Shown here: piece after piece, positions 7,407-45,453 of the stretch | How positions within the stretch are numbered: the stretch's first letter is position 1 | Layout of the letters: every line of letters starts with the position of its first letter | Source of the DNA: a bacterium | GTDB lineage: Bacteria > Lernaellota > Lernaellaia > JACKCT01 | Reading direction: 5' to 3' | NCBI GenBank assembly: GCA_963674685.2 | Contig: CAXXWT010000005.1 | Coordinates: 711,579-775,578, forward strand | Length of the DNA: 64,000 nucleotides | Program-made: the position numbers and the translations under genes | Notes under the pieces: generated by a model | Database searches by the model: none | The model's input: the letters and a program-made list of their open reading frames with translations, nothing else | What the model was told of the DNA's origin: nothing

Positions 7407-8167
7407 TGCGAAAAACCCATGTGATCATCGCCGTTGCGGCGCTGGCTTTTCTATGTGCAACGAATCTTTTCGCGCATGATTTCTCCGGCGAAAACTTGAG
7501 TTACGAATTCGGGTGGAAAGGAATCCCCGCCGCCGACGCGACCGTGAAAATCCGGAACGGACAATGCGGCAAACCCTGCTACGGCATCAAGATCGAAATG
7601 AAAGGCAAAAAATATCTCGACCTGTTTTGGAAAGTCCGCGACCGCTTCGAATCCACCTGCCTGAAGGATAATTACGCCACGCAGCGATATGCTTTTTACC
7701 AAAGAGAAGGCAGTTTCAATCTCGATACGGAAATCACTTACAACAAGAAAGCCGGACGGCTGACATCCACGCGCTTTCGCCTGGACAAGAATAAAAACTA
7801 CAAGGATAAATCGGCCCAGCCGGAGGTGATATTCGGCCCCCTGGCTTCGATTCTCTACATGAGATCCAACGCCTTAAACGTCGGCGATGAAAAAAGCGTT
7901 CAGGTGTTCGACGGCAAAAGGACGCACACGCTTTACTGGAAAGTGACGGGCAAAGAAAAAGTGAAAATCGGCATGGGGGAATTCAATGCGCTCAAGCTCA
8001 TGCCCCGCATCACGAAGTCGTCTTCCAAAGATGATGACAGCAAGGTCGAAAAGGTCCGAAAAGTCACGATCTGGGTTTCGGATGATCCGTCCCACACGGT
8101 CCTGAAAATAGAATCCGAAGCTTTTGTCGGCAGCGTCTACGCGGAGCTTGTCAACGGCTGGCCCTGA
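7406..8167 (+). CDS. DUF3108-like secreted protein
   Basis: The ATG at 7406 overlaps the upstream TGA (TGATG). Signal peptide MRKTHVIIAVAALAFLCATNLFA. 'LSYEFGWKGIPAADATVKI' and the beta-rich remainder resemble DUF3108. The track start at 7385 (TTG) is less likely. Confidence 0.5.
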   Translation: MRKTHVIIAVAALAFLCATNLFAHDFSGENLSYEFGWKGIPAADATVKIRNGQCGKPCYGIKIEMKGKKYLDLFWKVRDRFESTCLKDNYATQRYAFYQREGSFNLDTEITYNKKAGRLTSTRFRLDKNKNYKDKSAQPEVIFGPLASILYMRSNALNVGDEKSVQVFDGKRTHTLYWKVTGKEKVKIGMGEFNALKLMPRITKSSSKDDDSKVEKVRKVTIWVSDDPSHTVLKIESEAFVGSVYAELVNGWP

Positions 8168-8210
8168 TAAAAGCAATACGGATTTAACTTTTGTCCTTTA
8201 TGAGAAAAAA

Positions 8211-9023
8211 ATGAAATCCGTTTACCGATCCTTTGTCATACTTGTTGTTTGTTGCACCCTATTGCCGCTTATTATCTCCTGCGCGCAAAAAGACGATGAC
8301 GATGACAGATCGCATGATTCGGTTGCGGCCGTCGATGACGATGATGATGAAAGCCCCGTCAATGACGACAGCGGCGGGTGCGTCGATGATGATCAAAACG
8401 ACGATCTTGACGATGACGTCGATGACGACGCTGATGATGACACAGCTTCGCCTGACGATGACGCGGATGATGACGCGAGCCCCTGCCCCGAAGATATGGC
8501 CTGGATCGATAACGGAAAAATCGACGCATTCTGCATGGACAAATGGGAGGCGTCCCGGCCGGACGCCTCCGCGGATGCAGAAGGCGCGCAAGACGATTAC
8601 GCCGCGTCCGTCGCGGGAGTCATTCCATGGAAACCCGCGGGCAACGCCCAGGCCCTGCAAGCCTGCGCGGACGCCGGGAAAACGCTTTGCACACCGGACC
8701 AGTGGTATTTTGCATGCGCCGGCCCGGACGATCTGGCTTACGCCTACGGCAACGCATACGGGCCGTATACCTGCAACGGCATCGACGCCTTCAGCCCCGA
8801 TCCGCACCACCTGGCGCCTACCGGTTCATTTCCCCAATGCGTAAACCAATGGGGCGTCTATGATCTTAACGGCAACCTCTGGGAGCGCGTTCTGGGCGGC
8901 GACGACACGACCGTGCGGGGCGGCGCGTACAATTGCAGCAATTCGCTGTTGTACCAGCGCTGCGACTACATCCCGGGCTGGACGCCTTCGGCCCTCGGCT
9001 TTCGCTGCTGTAAAACACCTTGA
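8211..9023 (+). CDS. Formylglycine-generating-enzyme (SUMF1/FGE) family lipoprotein with Asp-rich tether
   Basis: ATG at 8211. MKSVYRSFVILVVCCTLLPLIISC is a lipoprotein-type signal peptide, followed by a D-rich linker. The C-terminal 'WGVYDLNGNLWERV...VRGGAY...ALGFRCC' is the FGE-sulfatase domain signature. Confidence 0.75.
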   Translation: MKSVYRSFVILVVCCTLLPLIISCAQKDDDDDRSHDSVAAVDDDDDESPVNDDSGGCVDDDQNDDLDDDVDDDADDDTASPDDDADDDASPCPEDMAWIDNGKIDAFCMDKWEASRPDASADAEGAQDDYAASVAGVIPWKPAGNAQALQACADAGKTLCTPDQWYFACAGPDDLAYAYGNAYGPYTCNGIDAFSPDPHHLAPTGSFPQCVNQWGVYDLNGNLWERVLGGDDTTVRGGAYNCSNSLLYQRCDYIPGWTPSALGFRCCKTP

Positions 9024-9031
9024 CGAAGTGA

Positions 9032-10123
9032 TTAACTTTTATCCTCTTGCCCAAAAGCATCTTCACAGGATATGGGCAACTGCGCGGCGTCGAAGGTTTT
9101 GCTAAGGTGTTTGTCAATGAAATCCGCGTCGTTTGAAATCAGGCATTTGCCGTGGTAACCGGCAAAACAAGGAATGTTCAGGGCCTTTCGCCGGATTTCG
9201 TTCATGGACTCGCGCAGCACGTTCCCCAGAGATATATGCATGAACGGACACGGCAGCACGTCGCCGTAAGGCGTGATGTACAAATTCTTTTTCACGGCGC
9301 CGCAGCCGAATCGCCCGGCGTTGGCGTGCAGATCCGTGCGCACGTTCGGCGATCCATCGACTAATTCCATCAGATATTTCTGGTCGTCTTCATTCAGCAA
9401 CATATCCGACTTGCCCAGCCATCTTCCCGCAGGCGCCGGCATGAGCAGATATATCAGCACCCCGGTTTTTTCCGCCCATTTGAGCAAATCCGTCACACCG
9501 CGCGTGCGCAAAGACTGATGCGTCACGACGGTGTTGACTAAAACCCTGATCCCGGCGTCCAGGGCGCAGCCGACGCCCGTCATGGTTTTTGCGTGCGCGC
9601 CGTCGATTCCGCGAAATGCGTCGTGATCCTTCGCGTCGGCGCTGTCGATGCTGAAAGTCAGGATATCCACGCCGCGCGACTTGATCTCGAACGCTTTTTC
9701 CGGTGTGAGCAATGTGCCGTTTGTCGTGATGGAAATGATATTGCGGCTCGGGCTGCATGCGTTTATGACGTCGAAAAGCCCGTCATAACAAAAAGGCTCG
9801 CCGCCCTCGAAAGAAAAATTGATCGCGCCAAGCTCCATGCACTCCCCGGCCACGCGCCGGTAATCAGCCAAAGTCATCTTGGCCCGCGAGTCGTCGCGCA
9901 GAGCCTGCGCATAGCAATGCCGGCAATTGAGATTGCAATCGTAATCCAGACCGAAATCCACGTACCAAAGCGGCGGCTGATCGGTGAAACGATCCTTGGC
10001 AATCGCTCCCGCCAGGCGCGCGAGCATAAGCGGCTTTTTCGGAAAAAAAGCGTATTTGAGATCAAGCGAAATTTGTCGAAAATCCGTCATGTTCGATGCC
10101 CGAGCCGCCGGCTTTGCCGCCAT
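9032..10123 (-). CDS. Radical SAM protein with SPASM/twitch-like C-terminal extension
   Basis: 'DCNLNCRHCYA' is a CxxxCxxC cluster. 'FEGGEP' is a SAM-binding motif. The C-terminal 'GCGAVKKNLYITPYGDVLPCPF' resembles a SPASM/twitch motif. The start could instead be ATG 10090 (MTDFRQ). Confidence 0.75.
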   Translation of the reverse strand: MAAKPAARASNMTDFRQISLDLKYAFFPKKPLMLARLAGAIAKDRFTDQPPLWYVDFGLDYDCNLNCRHCYAQALRDDSRAKMTLADYRRVAGECMELGAINFSFEGGEPFCYDGLFDVINACSPSRNIISITTNGTLLTPEKAFEIKSRGVDILTFSIDSADAKDHDAFRGIDGAHAKTMTGVGCALDAGIRVLVNTVVTHQSLRTRGVTDLLKWAEKTGVLIYLLMPAPAGRWLGKSDMLLNEDDQKYLMELVDGSPNVRTDLHANAGRFGCGAVKKNLYITPYGDVLPCPFMHISLGNVLRESMNEIRRKALNIPCFAGYHGKCLISNDADFIDKHLSKTFDAAQLPISCEDAFGQEDKS

Positions 10124-10350: not shown

Positions 10351-11592
10351 CTAGTCTAGCTGCTGATGCACAAATAAGACACTTAGGTCGCCTCTGAAAA
10401 CTGGCTGATTCGGGATGCATCCCGAATTGTGTCTATATTGTAAATAATATTCATGTTGTCCCTGATTAGCACCAACCAGGCCATTTAATCCAAATCCAAA
10501 CCGCATCTGAGTCGAACTTCCGGGAGCTGTATACACATTTGTGGCTCCGATAGCGGAATTTTGAATGCAAATAGAATTGAAAAGATCATTTATTCTTAAA
10601 TCGAAGGTACATGATGGATTGCTATTATTGAATTCAATAATAGCATTTCCCGTACCAACGACAAAGAAAAATCCATCTTCCGGGGCATCAACTGAGAAAG
10701 AACGAATAGTTTGCCAATCTTCTAATCCCTCCCATGAAACTAATTCTGATGTACAAATACTTTTTGTACCAACGATTCCAAATGGCCCCTGCGGTCCTTG
10801 CGGCCCTTCCGCGCCTGTCGCACCTTGCGGTCCTTCTGGTCCTATTGCGCCTTGTGAGCCTTCTGGACCTGCCGGGCCTTGCGGTCCCTCTGGCCCTGTA
10901 GCACCTTGTGAGCCTTCTGGACCTGCCGGGCCTTGCGGTCCCTCTGGCCCTGTAGCACCTTGTGAGCCTTCTGGACCTGCCGGGCCTTGCGGTCCCTCTG
11001 GCCCTGTCGCACCTTGCGGTCCTTCTGGTCCTATTGCGCCTTGTGAGCCTTCTGGACCTGCCGGGCCTTGCGGTCCCTCTGGCCCTGTAGCACCTTGCGG
11101 TCCCTCTGGCCCTGTCTCGCCTTGCAGTAGATGTGCTTCATCATTAGCCGTAAGGCCGTACTGATTTTCCACCACGATCCTAATGTCTTCATATCCAGCA
11201 TCGAACCACTGTTCGATGTCCCAGCCATCAGAAACTAGTAATGCCTCAATTTGAGAGTCAGTACTATTGGAAGCAATCACAGGAAGTTCTCTTTCGATTT
11301 CAGGATGATTCAACGGATAAACGAAAACTCGGCTGTTGGTCAGATTCTGGCCCAAGATCAGAATCCCGTTTGCGACAAGGTCAGGCTGTGCGATCGAATT
11401 GCCTTTGACCGTTTGAATTATGGGGGCTTGGCCGCTCGTGTCGTCATCAATCCCAACATCATCATCCATGACGTAATCATCATCAATTGCTTCATCATCT
11501 TCATCATTTCCGCCACTGCTCTCGTAGCATCCAAAAGCTACAAAAATTGAAAACACAGTGGTCATCAAAATAACACCTAATAAAGCACGCAT
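10351..11592 (-). CDS. Collagen-like triple-helix-repeat lipoprotein with Asp-rich tether and globular C-terminal domain
   Basis: ATG at 11592 is preceded by [28 protein letters not shown] is a signal peptide with lipobox. A D-rich linker follows, then about 37 uninterrupted G-X-Y triplets ([28 protein letters not shown]...). The roughly 140-aa beta-rich C-terminal domain is possibly C1q/BclA-like, but that is a guess. Confidence 0.85.
10783..11125 (-). repeat. Tandem DNA repeat encoding the G-X-Y region (54-bp unit nested in a 189-bp repeat)
   Basis: The unit ccttgtgagccttctggacctgccgggccttgcggtccctctggccctgtagca recurs back to back from about 10850. caccttgcgg at 10821 recurs at 11010 (189 nt apart). 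Confidence 0.85.
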
Positions 11593-11968
11593 TTTAACCT
11601 CCTTGAGAACTTCTTTATTCATTGCGAACGTTTGAACTCAACCTACTATTCTCATTTGGCACGCAAACAGAAAATTGGAAATTTATGTGCCTATTATTAA
11701 ATTATATTTGTATTGTATTTCCAGCCGAAGCATTTTGTCAACAACATTCTCTTGAATTTGCAAATTACTTAAAATCCTGTAAAACTTCCCGAGGAATTCG
11801 GGAAAGTGCTTTCATACAATATAATAATTTGTCATAATAGTGGGACATTTCTGGTGTTTCAGGTGAAATTCGTCCAACGACTTCGCCGAGGCCATTGACC
11901 TTTTGCGCGTGATGCTGTCCAATAATCTCAACTTTTCCTGTTTCAACTTCAAAAAAGCGGAGTGACTT

Positions 11969-13315: not shown

Positions 13316-13582
13316 AATATCTCATAATATTCAAGACTTACACCAACCATCCTTTCCATACGTTACAATCTCGTTACGTTAAAATGCTTTACAGGCATTA
13401 AGCGATATGTTAATTGCCAGACGCTAACTTTTTGTGATTTTCATGACTTTTTCGGGGCAATCAGACTATCGGTTCGGACTAAGCGGACCGGAGTGTGTTC
13501 GTGCATTTTTTTGCATAAACACACAAATATGTGTGCCAGATTTGAACGAAATTGAACGATAAATTTGAAAGGTTGGTTTGCA

Positions 13583-16084
13583 ATGAAGGCCTGGAAGCTG
13601 ATGGCGGTGGTTTTTTCAATTTTCTCGGCAACAGGAGCCTTGGCTGCGCCGGGAGACTGGATTGATCTCGGGGCGATAAGCGGCGCGGATACAATTTACG
13701 AACTTTATGAGGCGTCCAACGGAACCATTTACGTCGGAACCAATGACAACATGGCGTCCGTTAAAAAATCGACGAACGGCGGAGTCAGTTGGTCCAGTAC
13801 AAGCGATCTCTGGCTTGGTACGACGCGGGTTTATTCCATTACAGAGGACTCCGACGGAGTCATTTACGCCGCCTCACAATATTATCCCGGGATTATGCGG
13901 CATGGTTACGTCTATCGGAGCAGCAACGGCGGTTCATCCTGGACCCTGACCTTCAACCCGGATTCCGAATATACATACGATCTCATCTGCGCGCACAACG
14001 ACTATCTCATCGGAGGAACGCAGTATTATACGAGCTTCGAAAACAATGCCCGGGCCATAAGATCAACGGACGGAGCCGATTCATGGGGAACAGCCCGATT
14101 GGGTACGAATGACGGCGTCCGGGTGGTCTTTGAATCCTCCGACAATTATCTTTTCGCCGGCACCGACACCAATGGCGAGTTATGGCGAAGCACGGACAAT
14201 GCCTCGAACTGGTCGCTGATTTTCGAGCCGCCGGGAACCACTATTATTTTGTCGATTGGCGAGGATACAAACGGAAACATATATATCGGAGCGTACCCCA
14301 ACGGAGATATTTTCAAATCCACCGACGGCGGTGCAAACTGGAATTACACGGCTGATGTCGCCGGCGTGAGTTCAATCAGAACTATACTCGGTACATCTGA
14401 TGGAAGCATATATTTCGGACACGTCGGCGATACGGAAATTTACCGCAGCACCGACGGCGGCGATTCCTGGACGGCCGAGGCGCAGTTTTCCAGTACAACA
14501 CATATCAACTCATTGATCGAAAGTTCCGACGGATACATATACGCCGGCGCTGGAAACGACGGCCATGTGTACAAACGCCCCGTCTGCCCCGGAGGCTGCC
14601 TTGCCGACGGCCAATGCTTCGCCAACGGAGAAACGAACCCCGACAATGTCTGCCAGATTTGCGATATTGCTCAATCCGTCGGCGGATGGTCGGACAACGA
14701 CGGTGAAACATGCGACGACGGGCTTTACTGCACCGGGATCGACGAATGCGACGGAGGCACTTGTTCGGCGCATTCCAACGCGCCCTGCCCTGACGACAAC
14801 GTCTGGTGCAACGGCGACGAAACATGCGACGAAGGCACGCACGCCTGCGGCCATTCAGGAACGCCATGTCCCAGCGACGGTGTTTACTGCAACGGCCAGG
14901 AAAGCTGCGACGAGCAAAATGAGCAGTGCGTTCACATCAACGAGCCATGCCCCGACGACGGGCTTTGGTGCAACGGCGACGAAACCTGCGATGAAGGCAA
15001 CTTCCAATGCGGACACACCGGCGACCGTTGCACCGACGACGGGACCTGGTGCAACGGCGCGGAAAGCTGCGATGAAACCGGCGATCAGTGCCTGCATATC
15101 AACGAGCCGTGTCCCGACGACGGGCTTTGGTGCAACGGCATCGAGTCCTGCAATGAAGGTGCGCAAAGTTGCGAAACCACGGGCGATCCCTGCCCTGAGG
15201 ACAACACCTTCTGCAACGGTGAAAACGGCTGCAACGAAGACAACGATGCGTGTGAGCCGGTCAACGTGCCGTGCGGCGACGACGGACTGTGGTGCAACGG
15301 CGTGGAATCCTGCAATGAAATCGACGACCAATGCCTGCACTCAGGCGATCCGTGCCTGCAGGATGATTTCTGGTGCAACGGCGACGAGTATTGCGACGAG
15401 GACGCCGACGAATGCGCGCACGAAGGCAATCCCTGTGACGACGGCGAATTCTGCAACGGCGAAGAAGTTTGCACGGAACCCACGCAGTCCTGCAGCGAGG
15501 GAGCGCCGCCCTGCGTCGACGACGGCCTTTACTGCAATGGCGACGAATCCTGCGACGAAGTGGGCGACGAATGCACCCACGAGGGCAATCCCTGTGACGA
15601 CGGCGTTTTCTGCAACGGCGCGGAAGAATGCGTGGAAGACGGCGACGACTGCGAGCACGGCGAAGATCCATGCCCCGACGACGGCCTCTGGTGCACCGGG
15701 GAAGAATCCTGCAACGAGCAGGAGGAAGAATGCGAGACCACGGGCAATCCCTGCGACGACGGCGAATTCTGCAACGGCGAAGAGACCTGCGATGAAGATA
15801 ACCAGAGCTGCGACGAAGGTGAAGATCCCTGCCCCGACGACGGCTTATATTGCACCGGCGAAGAAAGCTGCGACGAGCAGACCGACGAATGTATGCAATC
15901 GGGCGATCCTTGCGAGTTGAACGAGACCTGCAACGAGCAGGAGGATCAATGCATCGATCTCTTGAGCGACGATGATACGACCTCGGATGATGACTATACA
16001 TCGGACGACGATACGGACGACGAGGAAAGTTCCGGGCGAAGCGGCAGCGACAGCGATGATACCGGCGGCGGCTGCGGATGCTGA
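13583..16084 (+). CDS. Secreted Asp-box (BNR/sortilin-like) beta-propeller head, CNG-type Cys-repeat stalk, acidic tail, C-terminal GCGC
   Basis: Signal peptide MKAWKLMAVVFSIFSATGALA. Six S-x-D-x-G-x-x-W boxes (STNGGVSWS, SSNGGSSWT, STDGADSWG, STDNASNWS, STDGGANWN, STDGGDSWT). Neck 'NPDNVCQIC...WSDNDGETCDDGLYCTG'. About 17 repeats of C.DDG.WCNG.E.C. Ends ...DSDDTGGGCGC*. Confidence 0.85.
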   Translation: MKAWKLMAVVFSIFSATGALAAPGDWIDLGAISGADTIYELYEASNGTIYVGTNDNMASVKKSTNGGVSWSSTSDLWLGTTRVYSITEDSDGVIYAASQYYPGIMRHGYVYRSSNGGSSWTLTFNPDSEYTYDLICAHNDYLIGGTQYYTSFENNARAIRSTDGADSWGTARLGTNDGVRVVFESSDNYLFAGTDTNGELWRSTDNASNWSLIFEPPGTTIILSIGEDTNGNIYIGAYPNGDIFKSTDGGANWNYTADVAGVSSIRTILGTSDGSIYFGHVGDTEIYRSTDGGDSWTAEAQFSSTTHINSLIESSDGYIYAGAGNDGHVYKRPVCPGGCLADGQCFANGETNPDNVCQICDIAQSVGGWSDNDGETCDDGLYCTGIDECDGGTCSAHSNAPCPDDNVWCNGDETCDEGTHACGHSGTPCPSDGVYCNGQESCDEQNEQCVHINEPCPDDGLWCNGDETCDEGNFQCGHTGDRCTDDGTWCNGAESCDETGDQCLHINEPCPDDGLWCNGIESCNEGAQSCETTGDPCPEDNTFCNGENGCNEDNDACEPVNVPCGDDGLWCNGVESCNEIDDQCLHSGDPCLQDDFWCNGDEYCDEDADECAHEGNPCDDGEFCNGEEVCTEPTQSCSEGAPPCVDDGLYCNGDESCDEVGDECTHEGNPCDDGVFCNGAEECVEDGDDCEHGEDPCPDDGLWCTGEESCNEQEEECETTGNPCDDGEFCNGEETCDEDNQSCDEGEDPCPDDGLYCTGEESCDEQTDECMQSGDPCELNETCNEQEDQCIDLLSDDDTTSDDDYTSDDDTDDEESSGRSGSDSDDTGGGCGC

Positions 16085-16122
16085 AATGACAATGTGATTT
16101 GAATCATTTCCTGGGAGAAAAA

Positions 16123-18156
16123 ATGCGACGAATTAGCCTGCTATTGACCTTCATTTTCCTTGCGGCGATTCCTTTCGGCGCCTTCGCACAAACATGGACA
16201 CTGCGCGGCAGCGCTCCATTGTCCACCGGTTTATCGGGAATGGCGATCGGCGGCGACGGAACCCTATACTTCGCTTGCATGGGTAACGGCTTCTATAAAT
16301 CGATCAACCGAGGGCAGACTTGGACCCAGGTCAGCGATCGATATGTAAGAGGTCTCGCCATTGATTCCACCGGAACTCTCTGGGGAATCGACAATGGCTC
16401 CACCCGACTGGTTTACAGCGAAGACGGCGGTGAAACCTGGAATACGACAAACTACTTCCCCAATTACCCGAATAATATAGCTTATGCAGTAATGGTTTCG
16501 AGCGACGATAAGATTTGGGCCGCCGGATACGATAAAGACTCGGACCCAAATTACTTGCGGGTCTACCGAAGCCCCGACGGAGGCAATACTTGGGTAACAC
16601 AGGATACGTTTCCCTATAGCACTACTATTGGGCAATTTCTGTTTGAAACCGATAGTAACACGCTTCTGCTTTGCACGAACCCAAATTACACCTATTACGG
16701 AAGGGTCTTCCGATCAACGAATCAGGGAATCAATTGGTCCCAGACCTTTTATTTCAGTGGCGATAATGGCAGTAATCCGATAACCTTGGCTCAGGACAAT
16801 ACGGGCGCCGTATTTCTGGCTCAACGCTACGATATCTGGAAAAGCGTCGACGACGGCGCGTCTTGGTTTAACCTGCCCAATACACCCGAAGGCGTCTACG
16901 TTTACTACGACATAGAAACGGATTTGGACGGTAATCTGTATGTGCCGGGGTATTCCACCGGTCAATATGTTATATACCGAACAACCGATTCCGGCGCCAC
17001 ATGGGAAACTCCCGCCGCTTTGGAAAACGCGGGGACTATATATTATATTGAAACAGGACCTGACGGCTCTGTTTTCGCCGTAGCTTACGGTGCACACCCC
17101 AGTTATTATTATAAAACTTATGAATTCTGCGACGGCTGCTACATCGGCGGCGTGTGCTACGCGGCGACCGAAATAAATCCTTCCAATCCCTGCGAATTTT
17201 GCGATCCGGCATACTCCAAGACCAACTGGAATAACCGCGACGGCCTGGCCTGTGACGACGGCCAATATTGCAACGGCGACGACACCTGCGTGGCCAGCGC
17301 CTGCACAACCCACGCGGGCAATCCCTGCGCAGACGACGGCTTGTGGTGCAACGGTCAACAGATCTGCGACGAAGGCTCGGACCAATGTTTCAACATTAAC
17401 ATCCCCGACTGTCCCGACGACGGTCTGTGGTGCAACGGGGACGAAGTGTGCGACGAGGTAGCCGACCAGTGTGGCCACACCGGAACGCCCTGCCCCGACG
17501 ACGCCGTGTACTGCAACGGGGACGAGGGATGTGACGATGCAACCGACGAATGCACGCATACCGGCGATCCCTGCCAACAAGACGGCGTTTTCTGCAACGG
17601 TGTCGAGGTCTGCGACGCAGAAGAGGATCAATGCATTTCCCCGGGCGATCCCTGCACCGACGACGGCCTGTATTGCAACGGCAATGATTGGTGCGACGAG
17701 GATTTCGACGAATGCATGCACGAGTACGATGAATCGAATCCTCTGTGCCCGGATGACGGTATTTATTGCAACGGCGACGAAATTTGCGACGAGCAAGGCG
17801 ATCAATGCGGTTCGTCGGGTGACCCTTGCGAAGATGACGGCGAGTTTTGCAATGGAGATGAGGTCTGCGACGAAGAAGCCGCCGAATGCATTAATTCGGG
17901 CGATCCGTGCGAGGAAGATGAAACCTGCAACGAAGATATCGACGAATGTTTGACCGCGGACGATGACACGGCGGACGATGACACAGTGGACGACGATACC
18001 TCCGACGATGATACTGCCGATGACGACACGGTCGATGACGACACAGCCGACGATGACGCCGATGATGACGATGTTGACGCTGATGACGATACTGAAGACG
18101 AACATGCTGACGGAGACGACGATGATGATTCCACCGGCAGCGGATGCGGGTGCTGA
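16123..18156 (+). CDS. Secreted Asp-box beta-propeller head, CNG-type Cys-repeat stalk, DDDTx-repeat acidic tail, C-terminal GCGC
   Basis: Signal peptide MRRISLLLTFIFLAAIPFGAFA. Asp-boxes SINRGQTWT, SEDGGETWN, SPDGGNTWV, STNQGINWS, SVDDGASWF, TTDSGATWE. Neck 'NPSNPCEFC...WNNRDGLACDDGQYCNG'. The tail ADDDTADDDTVDDDTSDDDT... ends STGSGCGC*. Confidence 0.85.
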   Translation: MRRISLLLTFIFLAAIPFGAFAQTWTLRGSAPLSTGLSGMAIGGDGTLYFACMGNGFYKSINRGQTWTQVSDRYVRGLAIDSTGTLWGIDNGSTRLVYSEDGGETWNTTNYFPNYPNNIAYAVMVSSDDKIWAAGYDKDSDPNYLRVYRSPDGGNTWVTQDTFPYSTTIGQFLFETDSNTLLLCTNPNYTYYGRVFRSTNQGINWSQTFYFSGDNGSNPITLAQDNTGAVFLAQRYDIWKSVDDGASWFNLPNTPEGVYVYYDIETDLDGNLYVPGYSTGQYVIYRTTDSGATWETPAALENAGTIYYIETGPDGSVFAVAYGAHPSYYYKTYEFCDGCYIGGVCYAATEINPSNPCEFCDPAYSKTNWNNRDGLACDDGQYCNGDDTCVASACTTHAGNPCADDGLWCNGQQICDEGSDQCFNINIPDCPDDGLWCNGDEVCDEVADQCGHTGTPCPDDAVYCNGDEGCDDATDECTHTGDPCQQDGVFCNGVEVCDAEEDQCISPGDPCTDDGLYCNGNDWCDEDFDECMHEYDESNPLCPDDGIYCNGDEICDEQGDQCGSSGDPCEDDGEFCNGDEVCDEEAAECINSGDPCEEDETCNEDIDECLTADDDTADDDTVDDDTSDDDTADDDTVDDDTADDDADDDDVDADDDTEDEHADGDDDDDSTGSGCGC

Positions 18157-18190
18157 AAATTTTATGAATTGAAAAACAAGAGGTTGTGAG

Positions 18191-20137
18191 ATGGGGAATT
18201 TCAAGATTGCGGCGATGATCCTTTCGCTGCTGTTCATTACGTCCGCGGCGCTTGCCGTCGACGACTCCGAAGAAGATACGGACGTCGCCGAAGCGGCAAA
18301 AGAATTTGATTCGGTCAAATACGAGGAACTTGACGACGAACCGATCTTCGACATGGAGCTTTCCGAAGAATGGGATGAACCGTATGTGTACGAGCCGGAA
18401 GGATTCGGCGAAGATCCGCTCATCACGGCTGTGATGGAAGACGACCTACTGGACGACACCTACGTGAGCGAGAGGTTTTCAGGCACGAATTACGGATATC
18501 GGAACTATTTCTATGCGGGTGCGGAGCTTGGGAAATGGGAATATGCGCTACTCAAAGCCTACCCCTGCCCGACCGCCGGATACGTCACTTCGGCGAAATT
18601 ACACGTCAAAATCGATATCTACAACATACTGTTTGAAGAGGATTTTTACGTCGCCCGCCCAACCTCGTTGTGGGATGAACACCAGGTCGATTGGAATAAC
18701 CGTCCCGGTTATGACGCCAACAGCACCGATCAAACAACGGTTTACGACGGAGACTGGTTTACACTGACGGCGACTAAAGCCGTGCAGCAGGCGTGCAATA
18801 ACGGGCAGGTTAACGGCGGTTTTTACATTTTCCATAAAAACGACTCCCTTCTGGCCGGGGACATTGGAATGCTCAGCGTAGAGGGCAACGGAAACTCGCC
18901 GGTGAGTTATATTCAAATTACTTACGAGGCCGGTTGCGCCATCGGCGGCAAAGTTTATCAAAACAACACGGTCAATCCGGGCAATCCGTGCGAGATCTGT
19001 AAAACGAGCCTGAACCGATATGACTGGTCGGCGCGAAACGGCGTCGCATGCAATGACGGCTTGTACTGCAACGGGACCGATACCTGCTCCAATAGGATCT
19101 GCTCCGTCCATACCGGTGACCCCTGTCCGGAAAACAGCAACGTGTGCGACGGAATTCGTACCTGTAATGAAAGTACCGACTCCTGCAACAACGGCACGCC
19201 CCTGAACTGTAATGATGGAAAAGTTTGCACCGACGATTCCTGCGATCCGATCGCCGGTTGCCAATACGCCGACAACACGGATCCATGCGACGACGGCGTT
19301 TTTTGTAACGGCGACGACACCTGCTCGGGCGGCACGTGTTCCGAGCATGACGGCGATCCCTGCGGCGACGACAACATTTTCTGCAATGGAAACGAGTATT
19401 GCGACACAGAACAGGACGAATGCACACACTCGGGAACGCCCTGCCCCGACGACGGCGAATTCTGCAACGGCCAGGAGTATTGCGAGGAGGCGACCGATCG
19501 TTGCCTGAGAACAGATGCGCCCTGCGGCGACGACGGTGTTTTTTGCAACGGCGTTGAAAGCTGCGACGAAGAATACGACCTATGCCAATCCGCCGGCGAT
19601 CCATGCGGCGGCGACGACGGTCTGTGGTGCACGGGTGAGGATTGGTGCGACGAAGAGGCCGACGAATGCGCCCATGATTACGATGACGAAAATCCCCGCT
19701 GCGCCGACGACGGCCTCTGGTGTAACGGCGACGAAATCTGCGTCGAACTCTTTCAGGAATGTGCCCATGAATTCGACGAAGACAACCTGCGATGCGGCGA
19801 CGACGGCCTGTGGTGCAACGGCGCGGAGAGTTGCGACGAGCAAAACGACGAGTGCGCATCCTCCGGGAACCCTTGTGACGTAAATGAAAGTTGCGTTGAA
19901 GATACGGATGAATGTCTGACGGTCGACGATGACGCCGATGACGACACGGATGACGATACGGATGACGACGCGGACGATGATACGACAGACGACGATGTGG
20001 ACGATGACGATGACGACGATACGGAAACGGACGATGATCTCGTTGATGACGACAGCTCGGATGATGAAGATGACGATCAAGCCGACCTTCGCAGTGGCGG
20101 CGACAGCGATTCCAGCGGCAGCGGATGTGGATGCTGA
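18191..20137 (+). CDS. Secreted DNRLRE/CBM-like beta-sandwich head, CNG-type Cys-repeat stalk, acidic tail, C-terminal GCGC
   Basis: Signal peptide MGNFKIAAMILSLLFITSAALA. The head has 'DDTYVSE...ALLKAY...VTSAKLHVKI...WDEHQVDWNNRP', which fits the DNRLRE-domain logic (low-to-moderate confidence). Neck 'NPGNPCEIC...WSARNGVACNDGLYCNG'. Ends DSSGSGCGC*. Confidence 0.8.
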   Translation: MGNFKIAAMILSLLFITSAALAVDDSEEDTDVAEAAKEFDSVKYEELDDEPIFDMELSEEWDEPYVYEPEGFGEDPLITAVMEDDLLDDTYVSERFSGTNYGYRNYFYAGAELGKWEYALLKAYPCPTAGYVTSAKLHVKIDIYNILFEEDFYVARPTSLWDEHQVDWNNRPGYDANSTDQTTVYDGDWFTLTATKAVQQACNNGQVNGGFYIFHKNDSLLAGDIGMLSVEGNGNSPVSYIQITYEAGCAIGGKVYQNNTVNPGNPCEICKTSLNRYDWSARNGVACNDGLYCNGTDTCSNRICSVHTGDPCPENSNVCDGIRTCNESTDSCNNGTPLNCNDGKVCTDDSCDPIAGCQYADNTDPCDDGVFCNGDDTCSGGTCSEHDGDPCGDDNIFCNGNEYCDTEQDECTHSGTPCPDDGEFCNGQEYCEEATDRCLRTDAPCGDDGVFCNGVESCDEEYDLCQSAGDPCGGDDGLWCTGEDWCDEEADECAHDYDDENPRCADDGLWCNGDEICVELFQECAHEFDEDNLRCGDDGLWCNGAESCDEQNDECASSGNPCDVNESCVEDTDECLTVDDDADDDTDDDTDDDADDDTTDDDVDDDDDDDTETDDDLVDDDSSDDEDDDQADLRSGGDSDSSGSGCGC

Positions 20138-20169
20138 AAATCATTCATTGAAGAATGGGGAGATAAACG

Positions 20170-22134
20170 ATGAGATTTACGTCCTTGTATTTGGTTCTTC
20201 TCCTGACTCTGGCGCTTTGGGCAACAGGATCGTGGGCGGAGGATATAGAAAGTCCGTTCCTGGAATTTGATGAAAACCAGGCCCTTTTATGGGAGAACGC
20301 CGATATCGACTACGAATTTTCTGATATTCAATATTCCGATCCTTTCGGCGAATTTTGGCAGCCTATCGAGATTGACCCGGATGGCGGCGATAATCGACCG
20401 GCGGGACTGCGCAGAAGTATTATTCCCATGGATTCACCCGACGCGGCGGAAACAAGAACGGATTCCATCGGTGTATTGGTCGATTGTTTCCAAAACGAAA
20501 ACAATCCAAGCGAATATGGCTGCGGCACGGATTATATACGAGTGGGATACAGGTATGGTTGGTATCATGCATTATTCAAGGCGGATATCTGCCGGGACGC
20601 CGATGAAATCGTCAGCGCCAGTTTGCGAATCAATATTAAAGGCAACTATCTGGCTACGACGGAATACTTTCGCATCTATGCAATTTCCGATTCCTGGTAC
20701 AGTCCGAACTGGTATGGAACACCAGACTATTATCCCAATGTTTACAGCTCCACATCGGTCAGTTCGGGCACCACGGGATGGGTCTCCTTCAATGCACTCA
20801 ATGCTGCGAAATTGTATTGCGAAGACGGCTATACCAACTGGGGTTTTTTCCTGCGGCATCACGATTCATCCCACAGCATCAATTACATCCATTTCGATTC
20901 GGAAGAGGCCAACAACGACAATCCGGTAACCTTTTACGACGTGACATACATTCTTCGCTGCGACATCGGCGGACAAAAATACGACCATCTGGAAACGAAT
21001 CCGGCGAATCCTTGTCTGGTCTGCGATGTGGACCAGGATTTGGAGCATTGGTCTCTCAACGACGGAGGCGCATGCGACGACGGCGTTTTCTGCAACGGCG
21101 CCGACACTTGCCAGGTCGGATCATGTTCCGTCCACGCCGGCGATCCCTGCCCCGACGACGGTTTGTGGTGCAACGGCGCGGAAAGTTGTAACGAATCGGG
21201 TGGTCAATGCGAGACGACAGGCGCGCCATGTGATTCGGTTTGCCAGGATTGTAATGATACTGCCGACACGTGCGTCGATAACAGCGATTCCTGTAATGAC
21301 GGGCTGTATTGCAACGGCGCGGACACGTGCGCCGGCGGCACCTGTTCGATCCACGCAGGAAATCCCTGCCCCGACAACGGCCTGTTTTGCGACGGCGAAG
21401 AATATTGCGACGAAGTCGGCAATCAATGCGACGTCCAGAACGTTCCGAACTGCGTCAACGACAATCTTTGGTGCAACGGTGAAGAATACTGCGATGAAAC
21501 CCTCAATGCCTGCAGCGCGGAAAATGTTCCGGACTGCTCGGATGACGGTTTATGGTGCAACGGCGAAGAATTCTGCAACGAAAACGACAACGCCTGCGAC
21601 CGGGAAAACATCCCGGACTGCGACGCCGACGACGGCCTCTGGTGCAACGGGATCGAACTTTGCGACGAAGATGCCGACCAGTGCGGACACGAATTCGGCG
21701 ACGGCAATCCGCGCTGCAACGACGGCATTTTCTGCAACGGCGAAGATCCCTGCAACGAGGAAACGGATCAATGCGGCCACGGAGATCAGGATCCATGTAC
21801 CGATGACGGCCTTTGGTGCAACGGTGAAGAATCCTGCGACGAGGTCGGCGACCAATGCCTGCATTCCGGCGATCCCTGCGATGACGGCGAAGAATGCATC
21901 GAAGACAATGACGAATGCATCGACGCCCCTGACGATGACACGGACGATGATACTTCAGACGATGATGCAGATGACGACACGACTTCGCCTGACGATGACG
22001 ATACATCGGACGATGACACCTCAGATGATGACACCATTAGCGATGACGATGATGATGACGAGACCAGCGAACCCGAACAAAGCACCGGCGGAAGCGGCGA
22101 CAGCGACTCCACCGGCAGCGGATGCGGATGCTGA
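20170..22134 (+). CDS. Secreted paralog of 18191-20137 (related beta-sandwich head), CNG-type Cys-repeat stalk, acidic tail, C-terminal GCGC
   Basis: Signal peptide MRFTSLYLVLLLTLALWATGSWA. The head aligns in outline with the previous gene (YHALFKADIC...IVSASLRINIK...). Neck 'NPANPCLVC...WSLNDGGACDDGVFCNG'. Ends DSTGSGCGC*. Confidence 0.8.
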   Translation: MRFTSLYLVLLLTLALWATGSWAEDIESPFLEFDENQALLWENADIDYEFSDIQYSDPFGEFWQPIEIDPDGGDNRPAGLRRSIIPMDSPDAAETRTDSIGVLVDCFQNENNPSEYGCGTDYIRVGYRYGWYHALFKADICRDADEIVSASLRINIKGNYLATTEYFRIYAISDSWYSPNWYGTPDYYPNVYSSTSVSSGTTGWVSFNALNAAKLYCEDGYTNWGFFLRHHDSSHSINYIHFDSEEANNDNPVTFYDVTYILRCDIGGQKYDHLETNPANPCLVCDVDQDLEHWSLNDGGACDDGVFCNGADTCQVGSCSVHAGDPCPDDGLWCNGAESCNESGGQCETTGAPCDSVCQDCNDTADTCVDNSDSCNDGLYCNGADTCAGGTCSIHAGNPCPDNGLFCDGEEYCDEVGNQCDVQNVPNCVNDNLWCNGEEYCDETLNACSAENVPDCSDDGLWCNGEEFCNENDNACDRENIPDCDADDGLWCNGIELCDEDADQCGHEFGDGNPRCNDGIFCNGEDPCNEETDQCGHGDQDPCTDDGLWCNGEESCDEVGDQCLHSGDPCDDGEECIEDNDECIDAPDDDTDDDTSDDDADDDTTSPDDDDTSDDDTSDDDTISDDDDDDETSEPEQSTGGSGDSDSTGSGCGC

Positions 22135-22161
22135 AGTTAAACAATTATCCGGGAGATACTG

Positions 22162-22590
22162 ATGGATACGCCACGAGGATTTTACGAAAACAAGATTTAC
22201 CTGATCATCCAAATCATCGCGGCGGTGTTCATGTTCATCGCCGGCATTTTGCAACTGGCCATGAAACACCAGATGGGATGGTTCTATTTGATTCTGGGTG
22301 TTGGAATGATTTTTATCGGCGTCTTACGCCGCTCATATGCGATCATCGAGTTTCGCACCGACGCCCTCACCTTGAAAAAAGCTCCGGCATTCGCCAGAAA
22401 AATCCTGCCGTATTCGCAGATCACGCATGCGGAAATCGTGTCCGCCAAAAAAGTGAAGTTCCACTATGAAAACGAAGGGCAAAAGGATGTTTTGGCGCTT
22501 CCCCTAAACGGAATTTCCGGGGCCGACCGACTCGAAGTCATGGATATCATCAAATCGAACTTCCGCGTGGAAGAACCTTCGCAATCTTAA
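22162..22590 (+). CDS. Small membrane protein (two TM helices plus a soluble, possibly PH-like, domain)
   Basis: Starts 27 nt after the upstream stop on the same strand. Hydrophobic segments IYLIIQIIAAVFMFIAGILQLA and WFYLILGVGMIFIGVL. No family recognised. Confidence 0.5.
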   Translation: MDTPRGFYENKIYLIIQIIAAVFMFIAGILQLAMKHQMGWFYLILGVGMIFIGVLRRSYAIIEFRTDALTLKKAPAFARKILPYSQITHAEIVSAKKVKFHYENEGQKDVLALPLNGISGADRLEVMDIIKSNFRVEEPSQS

Positions 22591-22595
22591 GGCTC

Positions 22596-23273
22596 GTGAA
22601 AAAAGCACTCCCATACATCATCGCGTCGGCGCTGGCCGTCATCGGGATTCGATATGCCTGGCTTTTTGTCACGGCGCCGGCCCCGAGCGCCACGCTCGCC
22701 GAGACTCCATACCCTGATGAGGATCCGCTGCAAAACGACCTGCCGTCTTTTGCGCCGATCAAGGTGAGTTTCGACGGCGGAATCGCCAAGATCAAACCGC
22801 GAGCCACGTATGAGATCACAGGCGCTGTATGCGGTCTCAATCACCTCAAGCACAGCAAGCTCGTGGGAATTATTCCATACGATCTTTGCCTGAAATGGGG
22901 ACGCCTCGCCACGGAGGACATGAAGGGCAAAGTCACCTTCAAACACGACTCTTTGAGACTGGATTGGGTGCAGGTCAGCCCCGGCGCGCCGGTGGATTTT
23001 CAATATGTTTCGCTGCATTTTTCCAATAATCATCTCATGTGCGCCGACGATGAAGTCTGCAAGGCCATTTCACGGCTGGACCGGGGCGACGTCGTGAAAA
23101 TCACGGGATACCTCGCCGATGCGATCATCACCACCCCCGAACGGGAATGGGACTGGAAAACCAGCATGGACAGGGGCGATACGGGCCTCGGCGCCTGCGA
23201 AACGATCTACGTGACCTCCATCCAGGCGGGAAAAAAGCTATACGGAATCCCCATCGAGCAGTTTGGCAAGTGA
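22596..23273 (+). CDS. N-terminally anchored or secreted hypothetical protein
   Basis: GTG start 5 nt after the upstream stop. MKKALPYIIASALAVIGIRYAWLFV is a signal or anchor segment. No family recognised. Confidence 0.5.
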   Translation: MKKALPYIIASALAVIGIRYAWLFVTAPAPSATLAETPYPDEDPLQNDLPSFAPIKVSFDGGIAKIKPRATYEITGAVCGLNHLKHSKLVGIIPYDLCLKWGRLATEDMKGKVTFKHDSLRLDWVQVSPGAPVDFQYVSLHFSNNHLMCADDEVCKAISRLDRGDVVKITGYLADAIITTPEREWDWKTSMDRGDTGLGACETIYVTSIQAGKKLYGIPIEQFGK

Positions 23274-26935: not shown

Positions 26936-28401
26936 CAATACTGTTCACTTAAAGCCCCCTTTCCACGATGCGGCATGTAGGGGAAGCCCGTGGTGGATCG
27001 AGATTTTCCCCTCGTCGTCGTATGGGATAGTTGCTCATCTTCACTTTGACGCCGCGTTTGTTTCTTCGCTCTCGGCTGGAGACCACGCGTTCTTCGAGAA
27101 TTTCTTCCAAGAGCCATCGATGGAATTTCTTTCTAAGCCGAGGGGGGAAAAGGATTTGTTTTTGGGATTTTTCGCCTCACGATGCGCACGGCGTGAACGA
27201 AGGAAAGTTTGTCCGCATCGAGATTGACGCTTTTGGCAGCCTGATGCATCAGATTGCGGATCATGAAGTGGGCCAGCATCAGGCCGAAAAATTCCTGTTT
27301 CACCAAGGCCGGGCTCTTGCTGCGCAACACGATCTTCGCCCCGCGCAGATGGGTTTTGAGTTCATCGAACGCCGTTTCGATCTCCCATCGTTCGTGGTAA
27401 AGCGCCGCCAGTTCCTCCGCCGGCGCGGCCTTCGCGTCAAGAATCGTCGTGATCAGGCGATAAATCGGCTCCGCGTCGGGCTGCCCTTCAAGCCGATACT
27501 CGATAACCCGAACCCGGATTCCGTCCTTGTTGTGTCGTTGCGCTTTTTCCGTCGGATAGATCGTGCTCAGATAGGATCCGTCGGACAGTTGTTTTTCCTT
27601 GCGCCGTACGTTGTTGATTTTGAGTCGCCAAAGCAGGTCCGCGCCGGTTTCGGCCGCCTGTTTCCACAAGGGATAACCGAAAAAATTCCGATCCGCCAGG
27701 CACAGCATCCCCTTTTGCAGATGTCCGACGACCTCTTGGGCCAACGTGATTTCCTGGACGCCGTAGGAACCCATACGCGAGTCGAACAACACGTGGGTGC
27801 CGTTCTCCACCAATGACACAAAACGGATTTTCGGATAACCGCTTTTGCCCCGAGACGCTTTCGGCCGACCGAAAGCCGCTTCGTTCTCATCGGTGTCCGC
27901 CACGTCCAGGGTGCTGCCGTCCAGGCTGACCGTTTTCCATTTTCGATACCACGCACCCGGTGTTTTTCGCGAAGCCAAAGGGCGCACCGAACGGTCGTGA
28001 AGCAAGCGAATCGGCTCGACGCCCAACCGCGTTCGAGCCTGGGATATCCCCGACTTGCCTGCGGTGCGCACCGGCTTCCCCAAAGATGGAAACCACTTGA
28101 TCCCCTCTTGCAAACAACGCAAAACCTCACCGTAGGAAACCTGCATGTACAACGACATGGCGATCACGTAATAGACCATCAAATCCGCCGGCAAATCACG
28201 CTCGCGAACACTGGCTTTACCGCTCTCGTACAAAATCGCCTGTACCTGCTCAAGAGGAAAGGTCATGCCGAGAACCCCAAGACTGATATGATCCGTGACA
28301 CGCATCCCTGGCGGAAGTTCTGCTACTGTTCTTGCCATAGTCGTATCCTCCTTCAATCGAAAGAAGAATACCAGAAAAATTTACTTAAGTGAACAGTATT
28401 G
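26936..28401 (-). mobile_element. IS4-family insertion sequence (1466 bp) with 17-bp perfect terminal inverted repeats and a 10-bp target-site duplication
   Basis: IRs are CAATACTGTTCACTTAA (26936-26952) and TTAAGTGAACAGTATTG (28385-28401). The direct repeat CTGCTAGCCC flanks both ends (26926-26935 and 28402-28411). Confidence 0.9.
27133..28338 (-). CDS. IS4-family DDE transposase
   Basis: ATG at 28338 preceded by GGAGGA. The N-terminal region 'DHISLGVLGMTFPLEQVQAIL..GKASVRERDLPADLMVYYVIAMSLY' resembles the IS4 N-terminal domain. 'YHERWEIETAFDELK' is the Y-x2-R-x3-E-x6-K signature. Confidence 0.85.
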   Translation of the reverse strand: MARTVAELPPGMRVTDHISLGVLGMTFPLEQVQAILYESGKASVRERDLPADLMVYYVIAMSLYMQVSYGEVLRCLQEGIKWFPSLGKPVRTAGKSGISQARTRLGVEPIRLLHDRSVRPLASRKTPGAWYRKWKTVSLDGSTLDVADTDENEAAFGRPKASRGKSGYPKIRFVSLVENGTHVLFDSRMGSYGVQEITLAQEVVGHLQKGMLCLADRNFFGYPLWKQAAETGADLLWRLKINNVRRKEKQLSDGSYLSTIYPTEKAQRHNKDGIRVRVIEYRLEGQPDAEPIYRLITTILDAKAAPAEELAALYHERWEIETAFDELKTHLRGAKIVLRSKSPALVKQEFFGLMLAHFMIRNLMHQAAKSVNLDADKLSFVHAVRIVRRKIPKTNPFPPSA

Positions 28402-29788: not shown

Positions 29789-30250
29789 ATGACGGCTCTT
29801 GACCAATTCAAAAATTTTGTCGCCAGCTCCAAACTGCGCATGACCCGCGAGCGTGAATTGGTGATTCAAAGCATCGCAATGCATGAAGGCCACTTCACGG
29901 TTTCGGGGATCGTGCGCAAGCTTCAATCCGAAGGATCGGCCGTGGCGCCGTCCACGGTCTATCGCATCATCCCGCACCTTATGGAAGCCGGTCTCATCCG
30001 AAAAGCGCCGCAAGCTGACGCTGACGGCGAACAGGCTTACGAACTCATTCATCGCCGCGAACATCACGATCACCTTATTTGCGATCGCTGCGGCGAAGTC
30101 ATCGAGTTCGTCGAAGAATCCATCGAGCGCGCGCAGGAAAAGGTGGCGGCGAAATATGGATACAAACTAAAGAAGCATAATCTGGAACTGCACGGCGTGT
30201 GCCGGGCGTGCCAGGAGAAAATCATCGAAAAGGCGGTGCGGGCATGGTGA
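29789..30250 (+). CDS. fur: Fur family transcriptional regulator
   Basis: Winged-helix N-terminus, 'HHDHLICDRCGEVIEF' and 'LHGVCRAC' metal-site motifs, about 150 aa. Confidence 0.85.
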   Translation: MTALDQFKNFVASSKLRMTRERELVIQSIAMHEGHFTVSGIVRKLQSEGSAVAPSTVYRIIPHLMEAGLIRKAPQADADGEQAYELIHRREHHDHLICDRCGEVIEFVEESIERAQEKVAAKYGYKLKKHNLELHGVCRACQEKIIEKAVRAW

Positions 30251-30468
30251 ATAACTCTTCGCATCAATGCTCCTGTAGCCGCCGGGGCGGCCGCCGCTCG
30301 CGGGATTTGCGCTGTCACTGCGGCAAATTGCTGGCGAAATTGAGCCCCGACGGCATCGTGATTCGCTGCCCGCGTTGCAAGCGGGAGATGGTTGTCAGCA
30401 TGGCGGATTTGATCGTCAATCTGGACAAGGGCTGGTCGGAGGTGTCCTTCATAGAAAAAACCGCCTGA
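30244..30468 (+). CDS. Com-like zinc-ribbon protein
   Basis: The ATG at 30244 overlaps the fur stop (ATGGTGA). 'LRCHCGKLLAKLSPDGIVIRCPRCKREMVV' has the CxC...CPRC spacing of Mu Com-type Zn ribbons. Confidence 0.5.
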   Translation: MVNNSSHQCSCSRRGGRRSRDLRCHCGKLLAKLSPDGIVIRCPRCKREMVVSMADLIVNLDKGWSEVSFIEKTA

Positions 30469-30517
30469 AAAAATACGTAACTCATTTTAACGAGGCCTGA
30501 GATCGTCAAAGAATCCT

Positions 30518-30561
30518 GAGCCCGATTGACCGGGAGAAATCCCGGCGGTCGGGCTCTTTTT
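30518..30561 (+). terminator. Rho-independent terminator
   Basis: gagcccga (30518-30525) pairs with tcgggctc (30549-30556). An inner ccggga/tcccgg stem is present, followed by TTTTT. Confidence 0.7.
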
Positions 30562-30574
30562 ATTGGGGATAATT

Positions 30575-31267: not shown

Positions 31268-31296
31268 AAAATGTTTTCGTGAAAGGAGAATCATTC

Positions 31297-31533
31297 ATGA
31301 CCACGCTCAACGAACTCAAACCCGGCGAACGGGCCATCGTGCTCAAAATCGCTGGAGGCGGCGAATCGAGACGCCGTCTCATGGACATGGGAGTGGGCAA
31401 AGGCGTCCCGATAAAAGTGGACAAAACAGCCCCTCTCGGCGATCCCATCGACATTACGATCAAGGGTTATCACCTCTCGCTGCGCAAGGAGGACGCGAAA
31501 AACATCCTGGTCAGGGAGGTGAAAAATGGCTGA
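31297..31533 (+). CDS. feoA: Ferrous iron transport protein A
   Basis: 78 aa, AAGGAGA RBS. '[35 protein letters not shown]...[25 protein letters not shown]'. It appears only as the tail of the spurious track ORF 30652-31533. Confidence 0.85.
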
Positions 31534-33901: not shown

Positions 33902-33915
33902 TTCAGGAGAAAACC

Positions 33916-34095: not shown

Positions 34096-34156
34096 TTTAA
34101 TCGTTGCCCGAAAAAAACAGATCAAATGGAAGACAAAAACATCAAGGAGCAAACCA

Positions 34157-45421: not shown

Positions 45422-45453
45422 TTTGCGCTGAATGGGCTTTGGAGGTTTTACAA

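Follow-up and report, generated by a model that had tools for sequence, protein, structure and literature searches.

Can an exported protein be sorted by a Cys motif at its extreme C terminus when no membrane helix follows the motif? The question is raised by a gene at 16123-18156 of a 64,000-nucleotide stretch of DNA from a Lernaellota bacterium (contig CAXXWT010000005.1; the whole stretch is referred to as the window), whose product ends in a poly-Asp linker, G-S-G-C-G-C and a stop codon. It is one of seven signal-peptide proteins of the 64-kb window in which an Asp-rich linker is followed by GCGC, CCGC or the degenerate GGCCAYN and then by the stop. An initial annotation of this DNA had read such ends as a helix-less sorting or modification signal, and that proposal is supported by the recurrence of the tail, by the unrelated heads that carry it and by the exclusion of truncation. 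We consider it moderately likely that poly-Asp followed by a terminal Gly-Cys(-Gly-Cys) marks Sec-exported proteins for sorting or anchoring, as a modular C-terminal tag that relies on Cys and has no helix. To our knowledge, the established prokaryotic C-terminal sorting signals of the MYXO-CTERM class have all been described as tripartite, comprising a motif, a membrane helix and a basic cluster. If the tag operates as proposed, a Gly-Cys motif alone would demonstrate that Cys-based sorting can do without the helix.

C termini of the seven window proteins

The C termini listed in the initial annotation (GGGCGC, GSGCGC four times, DDCCGC and GGCCAYN) were re-read from the DNA, and all seven stand at the gene ends given there. 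GCGC or CCGC, a Cys motif like the MYXO-CTERM signature, terminates six of the proteins. The layout is common to all seven and comprises a Sec signal peptide, a variable head, a Cys stalk of approximately 28-residue repeats, the linker and the tail. Heads are BNR/Sortilin-like or SBBP propellers, DNRLRE/CBM96 domains or PDIAV-like repeats. Cys counts of the stalks are all even (120, 68, 40, 46, 46, 12 and 12). Linker length, counted from the last repeat Cys in all seven, is 39-90 residues. Asp plus Glu make up 44-65% of the linkers, for which 'almost pure Asp' was an overstatement, and Lys plus Arg make up 0.6%.

The open reading frame (ORF) of the focal gene opens at TTG 16099. The likely start is ATG 16123, the Met at which the database copy (P0001) begins. 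All parts are encoded on the forward strand. A Sec-type signal peptide, MRRISLLLTFIFLAAIPFGAFA, was read from the translation of 16123-16188; the AlphaFold2 (AF2) model has a helix over residues 2-14, with the propeller next. The beta-propeller head (16192-17130) is BNR/Sortilin-Vps10-like (Pfam BNR, BNR_2 and Sortilin-Vps10; NCBIfam F510_1955-like) and was modelled with a predicted local distance difference test score (pLDDT) of about 85-94 over residues 24-336. The Cys-rich stalk (17128-17949) contains 40 Cys in repeats of approximately 28 residues, PCxDDGxWCNGxExCDExxDxC, modelled as beta-hairpin repeats at a pLDDT of 50-80. No Pfam, NCBIfam or PDB sequence match was obtained for the Cys-rich stalks. 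The poly-Asp tether (17950-18135) is composed of DDDTx units. Its 15-bp period, already noted in the initial annotation, was recovered by Tandem Repeats Finder as 6.6 copies at 17959-18057. The last 64 residues (614-677) have a pLDDT below 40 and are predicted to be disordered. The terminal tag G-S-G-C-G-C and its TGA occupy 18136-18156. Exact-sequence look-up in public assemblies returned no match for the focal protein, with either start codon, or for P0078.

Four tail genes, the focal gene among them, form a tight operon-like row at 13565-22134 with spacers of 27-38 nt. The first (13565-16084) encodes a propeller head, a linker at 15953-16069 and GGGCGC at 16064-16081, followed by TGA. The two that follow the focal gene both encode DNRLRE/CBM96 heads and end in GSGCGC and TGA: 18191-20137 has its linker at 19916-20122 and its tail at 20117-20134, and 20170-22134 has its linker at 21919-22119 and its tail at 22114-22131. 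GSGCGC is thus the end of four ORFs, namely 16099-18156, 18191-20137, 20170-22134 and 45439-47196. The last of these encodes a PDIAV-like repeat head with only 12 repeat Cys, a linker at 46918-47181 and GSGCGC at 47176-47193 before TGA. It is followed by 47342-49078, with a PDIAV-like head, a linker at 48794-49063 and DDCCGC at 49058-49075 before TAG. These paralogs, like the seventh gene (98-3835; see below), lie on the forward strand.

A minimum of two Cys in the last eight residues was found in 10 of the 257 six-frame ORFs of at least 100 residues in the window, and seven of the ten are the tail genes. Tail codons vary synonymously among paralogs (GGA/GGG/GGT/GGC and TGC/TGT) over unchanged residues, which argues that selection acts on the peptide.

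Ends of this kind could be produced from MYXO-CTERM by truncation through assembly error, frameshift or read-through, and a few distant homologues (P0036 and P0262) do have Gly-Cys followed by a helix and Arg residues. A helix with a basic cluster was sought in three frames over 150 nt downstream of all seven genes and, as the initial annotation had stated, none was found; what hydrophobic stretches there are 3' of the tail genes belong to the following genes, as signal peptide or first helix, each behind a start codon of its own. More than 100 independent genes in many assemblies stop at the same Cys motif, with TGA, TAG and TAA stops. Related loci, with approximately 2,000 ORFs, contained no case of poly-Asp combined with a C-terminal helix, and when approximately 2,600 ORFs were scanned more broadly, a single tripartite-like C terminus came up. 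A truncation artefact, which the initial annotation had itself raised against its proposal, is refuted by the downstream frames and by the many independent genes with all three stops, and its probability is practically nil.

The single tripartite-like end belongs to a Metallophos protein (L120, 14160-15467 of contig Ga0675942_0000034) that ends in VCGG, approximately 20 residues, a hydrophobic helix and RRRR. It adjoins genes with GGCCGC, AGCCG and EGCCG tails, and no NCBIfam sorting model matches it.

Stop codons of the window tail genes are TGA in six and TAG in one, TGA being the commonest stop of the window anyway (21 of 46 genes). Selenocysteine read-through of TGA was rejected because TAG and TAA tails exist and nothing resembling a continuation lies downstream.

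Occurrence of the tail beyond the window

Among the matches listed, 62 of 120 homologues of the focal protein have a terminal Cys tail. Two types were distinguished. Type a is poly-Asp plus [GS]x-GCGC and a stop; type b is [LVI]WP[EK]GxV[TS]GGCCGC, sometimes with 1-6 further residues. The SBBP-propeller protein encoded at 98-3835, which has 120 repeat Cys, ends in DWGEGDLSGGCCAYN, with GCCAYN at 3815-3832; judged by its sequence, this GGCCAYN tail is a degenerate copy of the second type, WPEGxVTGGCCGC. Examples of type b tails that extend past the Cys motif end in GGCCGCGDNGSD or CCGCGDNGKDD (L122, L125 and L128; metagenome contigs JAANMU01...).

One genome per GTDB species was scanned with the DNA pattern DDDD-x(0-10)-GCGC-TGA, which gave at least 118 loci. 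Among the 118 listed, 51 are long ORFs ending in poly-Asp and GCGC. All of these ORFs are in eight metagenome-assembled genomes (MAGs), of which three carry the label FEN or FEN-1099 and the other five are unclassified ('bacterium'); the eight hold at least 15, 12, 8, 6, 6, 2, 1 and 1 of them. With at least 51 such ORFs in the eight MAGs and the 62 homologues listed above, enrichment of the tail beyond the paralogs of the window is strong. Approximately 65 of the 118 listed matches, in Acidobacteriota and other phyla, were short and out of frame and were discarded. The pattern matched Acidobacteriota, Bryobacterales, Vicinamibacterales and Chloroflexota at a fixed 56 nt (L006, L011-L013, L016-L020 and approximately 55 more loci). 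No ORF ends at these 56-nt matches, where the frame gives just RPAGRSxRPRGGCGC; a conserved GC-rich element on another frame or strand is probably responsible. A 45-position profile of the tail gave no match at E ≤ 0.001 among 1.84 billion representatives; being of low complexity, the profile is without statistical power, and the result is uninformative on distribution.

The closest named entries to the phosphoglycerate kinase of the window come from a 'Deltaproteobacteria bacterium' MAG (68% identity), Candidatus Lernaella stagnicola (62%) and Candidatus Alcyoniella australis (59%). These identities point to the Lernaellota (FEN-1099) lineage as the source of the window. Lernaellota have been described as a proteolytic and saccharolytic phylum with peak abundance in anoxic water (PMC9324843). 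The tag appears to be in use across a lineage related to Lernaellota (FEN-1099).

Cargo, linker and terminal Cys

A Sec signal peptide is present on nearly all of the full-length ORFs ending in poly-Asp and GCGC. The signal peptides of tagged proteins are of type I, with AxA-like cleavage sites and no lipobox Cys. Heads among the 51 ORFs include Peptidase_C25 (6), Kelch (4), M14 (3), S8 (3), PKD (3) and M28 (2), and also GH43, trypsin-like and FG-GAP domains. The unrelated heads noted in the window were therefore confirmed and extended to many enzyme families.

The same loci contain approximately 19 genuine C-terminal poly-Asp ORFs that had not been selected by the pattern, and all of them have a Cys in the last 1-5 residues. 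They end in GCGC, ACGC, GCAC, CCGC, GCA, GCSF, CGCGG, CGGT or MCA. With a near-terminal Cys in all of these unselected ORFs, the constants of the tail are an acidic tether and then Gly-Cys very near the end.

These ends bear on the explanation that the tail is a functionless, lineage-specific, low-complexity 3' cassette that was passed among genes by recombination or slippage and then simply inherited. Poly-Asp linkers are a general idiom of the tail-bearing genomes, occurring at N termini too, and 15-bp tandem-repeat linker DNA is slippage-prone, both of which suit such a cassette. However, linker length and sequence vary freely, yet the terminal Cys is kept in every unselected case, and the tail residues are conserved over synonymous codon differences. 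Furthermore, the tail is kept across genomes whose phosphoglycerate kinase is only approximately 60% identical to that of the window, and it stands where homologues bear recognised sorting domains (see below). We regard a functionless cassette as improbable.

The distribution of Cys among the cargo bears on another explanation, in which the tail would be a redox-active or metal-handling CXC arm that shuffles stalk disulfides or captures metal. Models for such an arm are the Cys-Gly-Cys tail of the sulfhydryl oxidase Erv2 and CXC mimics of protein disulfide isomerase. In its favour, all seven window proteins pair the tail with a stalk of dozens of Cys, as do the type b ORFs, which in a metagenome pattern scan were confined to Cys-repeat proteins (14 of 14). 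Against it, most of the tagged proteins in the GTDB MAGs lack Cys-rich repeats: only approximately 8 of the 51 ORFs have them, and several contain just 2-4 Cys in total. Cargo of the MAGs consists of ordinary hydrolases, and the single-Cys variants GCA and GCSF cannot make a CXC disulfide. In Erv2 (Cys-Gly-Cys), thioredoxin reductase (GCUG) and MerA (CC), as in the tail, two Cys are borne at the C terminus on a flexible arm. Tails of the Erv2 kind serve the active site of their own enzyme, whereas the cargo here comes from unrelated families and frequently lacks any further Cys. The tagged heads are propellers, CBM96, peptidases and GH43, with no FAD or thioredoxin domain among them. A redox or metal-handling role is thus hardly to be expected.

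Linkers of the window genes and of loci L003-L117 follow a DDD-T-[A/V/T/I] idiom and contain approximately 2.3 D-[ST]-[AILVMT] triplets each. We take this triplet to have the form of the general O-glycosylation sequon of Bacteroidota. On the strength of that likeness, the poly-Asp tethers could be glycosylated.

Relation to MYXO-CTERM and other C-terminal signals

MYXO-CTERM has been described as a signature with a 'generic GCGC motif', followed by a membrane helix and then an Arg cluster (PMC11980579). The tail shares with it (TIGR03901/TIGR03382, 'GC_trans_RRR') the Gly-Cys signature, the preceding disordered region, Sec export, varied heads and many copies per genome. The MYXO-CTERM protein TraA is ordered as signal peptide, head, Cys-rich repeats, disordered region and tag (PMC11980579). 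The window proteins have the same layout of head and Cys-rich repeats, but they stop at GCGC, the stop following the Cys without a membrane helix or an Arg cluster. NCBIfam sorting models matched neither the whole window proteins (E ≤ 1) nor the isolated tails (E ≤ 10), and no Pfam model matched the tails. Both positive controls exceeded the TIGR03901 cutoff of 20, P0036 with 21.4 bits and P0262 with 30.1 bits. The tail is found in FEN-1099-labelled and unclassified MAGs and, unlike MYXO-CTERM, not demonstrably in Myxococcota. It is not a member of MYXO-CTERM: when the three defining parts were looked for, two proved to be absent, and the hidden Markov models (HMMs) do not match. In its signature, in the logic of its cargo and in its evolutionary neighbourhood it does agree with MYXO-CTERM. 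The comparison made in the initial annotation understated the link, the signature being literally GCGC (PMC11980579).

Homologue P0036 ends in GCGC, a helix and RRARR. Among C25 peptidases, those nearest to a tail-bearing member have the poly-Asp and GCGC end (P0241-P0249), the more distant P0251-P0253 carry the type IX secretion system (T9SS) sorting domain PF18962, and P0262 carries MYXO-CTERM (TIGR03901, 30.1 bits; TIGR03382, 25.8 bits). Since homologues of the cargo families bear MYXO-CTERM or the T9SS domain, the tail occupies the position of recognised sorting domains.

Modular C-terminal tags on unrelated secreted hydrolases and adhesins are likewise formed by the T9SS C-terminal domain (CTD), PEP-CTERM, GlyGly-CTERM, PGF-CTERM and LPXTG. 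The tail lacks the tripartite layout that most of these signals have and consists of a disordered acidic stretch and 1-3 terminal Cys. The T9SS CTD, unlike the tail, is a folded beta-sandwich. Eukaryotic CaaX and Rab prenylation signals (CaaX, -CXC, -CC and -CCXX) are closer in form: they share a short, helix-less Cys motif at the extreme C terminus, with Cys in the last four residues, and their range of variants is similar to the CGC, CCGC, CCG, GCA and GCSF of the tail. Proteases of the CPBP/Rce1 superfamily handle both the long MYXO-CTERM and the short CaaX signals (myxosortase papers). However, soluble prenyltransferases act on CaaX and Rab substrates in the cytosol, whereas the tail proteins carry signal peptides that take them out of the cytoplasm. 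A search of the window turned up no prenyltransferase domain. No literature on a helix-less GCGC terminus was found, including in the myxosortase papers and the description of Lernaellota; coverage of the literature was incomplete, and this is absence of evidence only.

Poly-Asp beside the lipobox Cys of lipoproteins

In eleven lipoproteins, from the window and from related loci, a DDDTx tether comes immediately after the lipobox Cys, as in ...LVASCGGDDDD or ...LVACGDDDDD. The window member found by the lipobox scan is a small lipoprotein encoded on the reverse strand at 43800-44168, in which the lipobox Cys (...VTASAC) precedes a run of 21 Asp; the other 10 are in related loci. As the lipobox Cys adjoins poly-Asp in tail-bearing genomes, poly-Asp is the spacer that this lineage places beside a known lipid anchor. 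The C-terminal tail reads as the same arrangement reversed, with the tether first and then Gly-Cys. Bacterial N-terminal lipoproteins (Lgt/Lsp) thus share with the tag a Cys beside a poly-Asp (DDDTx) tether in the same genomes. They differ in that the lipobox Cys ends a membrane-embedded signal peptide, whereas nothing hydrophobic in the C-terminal tag could present its Cys to a membrane enzyme.

An N-terminal Cys followed by an Asp/Glu-rich stretch was seen in three window proteins, at 43800-44168 on the reverse strand, 8124-9023 on the forward strand and 10351-11622 on the reverse strand, of which only the first was picked up by the lipobox scan. The protein at 8124-9023 is FGE-sulfatase-like and ends in GFRCCKTP, and that at 10351-11622 contains collagen-like GPEGPQG repeats.

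Proposed mode of attachment

In the sorting or anchoring tag that we favour, the signal peptide would export the protein through Sec and the variable head would be its working part. The disordered, strongly acidic poly-Asp segment would serve as the tether and the terminal Cys thiol or thiols as the attachment point, where a lipid would hold the protein at the cell surface. We infer that the Cys may be modified, that the modification may be a lipid and that the protein may reside on the surface. It is the parallels with MYXO-CTERM and with N-terminal lipoproteins that point to a lipid, an assignment of the attachment that we offer tentatively.

In the route proposed for MYXO-CTERM, an as yet unidentified transferase lipidates the Cys, MrtX cuts on its distal side and type II secretion delivers the protein to the surface (PMC11980579). 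MYXO-CTERM is cleaved by myxosortase; the proposed mature end of the tail would need no such cleavage. Lacking the helix and the Arg cluster, a tagged protein is made already ending where myxosortase-cleaved MYXO-CTERM is proposed to end. By analogy, a separate envelope pathway might recognise the helix-less Gly-Cys end on exported proteins and use the thiol to attach them covalently, probably to a lipid, although we hold the existence of such a pathway to be doubtful. It might, with the same degree of doubt, be a periplasmic counterpart of CaaX/Rab lipidation, in which the tail is a natural 'pre-cleaved' MYXO-CTERM without helix or need of myxosortase. The modifying enzyme could be the same transferase as that proposed for MYXO-CTERM.

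Several points weigh against a sorting or anchoring tag of this kind. We know of no bacterial enzyme that lipidates a soluble periplasmic C terminus without a membrane helix. Membranes should also repel a tether so strongly anionic. The 64-kb window yielded no candidate enzyme, whether CPBP/myxosortase, Lgt-like or other, and clustering of approximately 50 loci gave no recurrent partner gene beside the tail genes. Some type b tails run 1-6 residues past the last Cys, and thus a free Cys carboxylate is not required. The invariance of GCGC in alignment A2 is by construction, since the GTDB pattern forced it. Finally, the taxonomy of five of the eight tail-bearing MAGs goes no further than 'bacterium'.

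Part of this difficulty would be sidestepped if the terminal thiols linked the protein, through a disulfide or a metal bridge, to an envelope partner with a Cys or to other tagged proteins, no C terminus then having to be lipidated away from the membrane. Such bridges would build a covalently linked surface layer and would need neither periplasmic energy nor a lipid donor; the failure to find a lipid-transfer enzyme in the window agrees with this. CCGC adds three Cys to an even set of repeat Cys, leaving at least one unpaired within the chain unless a signal-peptide Cys stays, and the tail tolerates anything from one to three Cys. On the other side, no conserved partner was identified in the approximately 50 loci, and the MYXO-CTERM and N-terminal lipoprotein parallels favour a lipid. 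Extracellular disulfides are fragile under reducing, anoxic conditions, which counts against a disulfide tether. Lernaellota were described from anoxic zones (PMC9324843). A thiol-bridged tether is accordingly rated as rather unlikely.

If the sorting or anchoring tag is borne out, it would offer an approach to the as yet unidentified enzyme acting on the MYXO-CTERM Cys (PMC11980579), and comparison of genomes with and without the tail would be a direct route to the processing enzyme. An HMM or a rule for the tail would be a concrete gain for annotation. Much of what an uncultured phylum secretes or displays at its surface, its proteases and glycosidases included, could then be recognised by annotators.

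Neighbouring genes

Genes near the tail genes that the initial annotation had put forward as processing candidates showed no evidence of involvement. Nothing specific was found for the FGE-like gene (8124-9023), whose product is itself a poly-Asp lipoprotein. The radical SAM/SPASM gene (9032-10123) gave no equivalog match, and the genes at 22162-23273 matched nothing in NCBIfam and do not recur beside tails elsewhere. The sole repeated neighbour is a paralog of a B12-binding radical SAM protein, present at four loci with about 25-33% identity (window 53355-54761 on the reverse strand; L040, L056 and L109). It was judged coincidental as a partner of the tail, and probably belongs to a large paralog family. 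The genomic contexts of P0010 and P0036 contained no processing enzyme.

A small two-helix membrane protein (22134-22590; weakly EbsA-like/DUF308) starts 27 nt past the last tail gene of the row. Its gene is in the same frame as the preceding tail gene, with two stops between, and is followed by a gene at 22596-23273. Between the two groups of tail genes lies an IS4-family DDE transposase (27133-28356 on the reverse strand; Nterm_IS4 and DDE_Tnp_1). An iron-uptake block at 29789-35290 comprises Fur, a Fur-FeoA fusion and FeoB, and then a secreted LbtU siderophore porin-like protein that scored 87 bits, just below the cutoff of 90.

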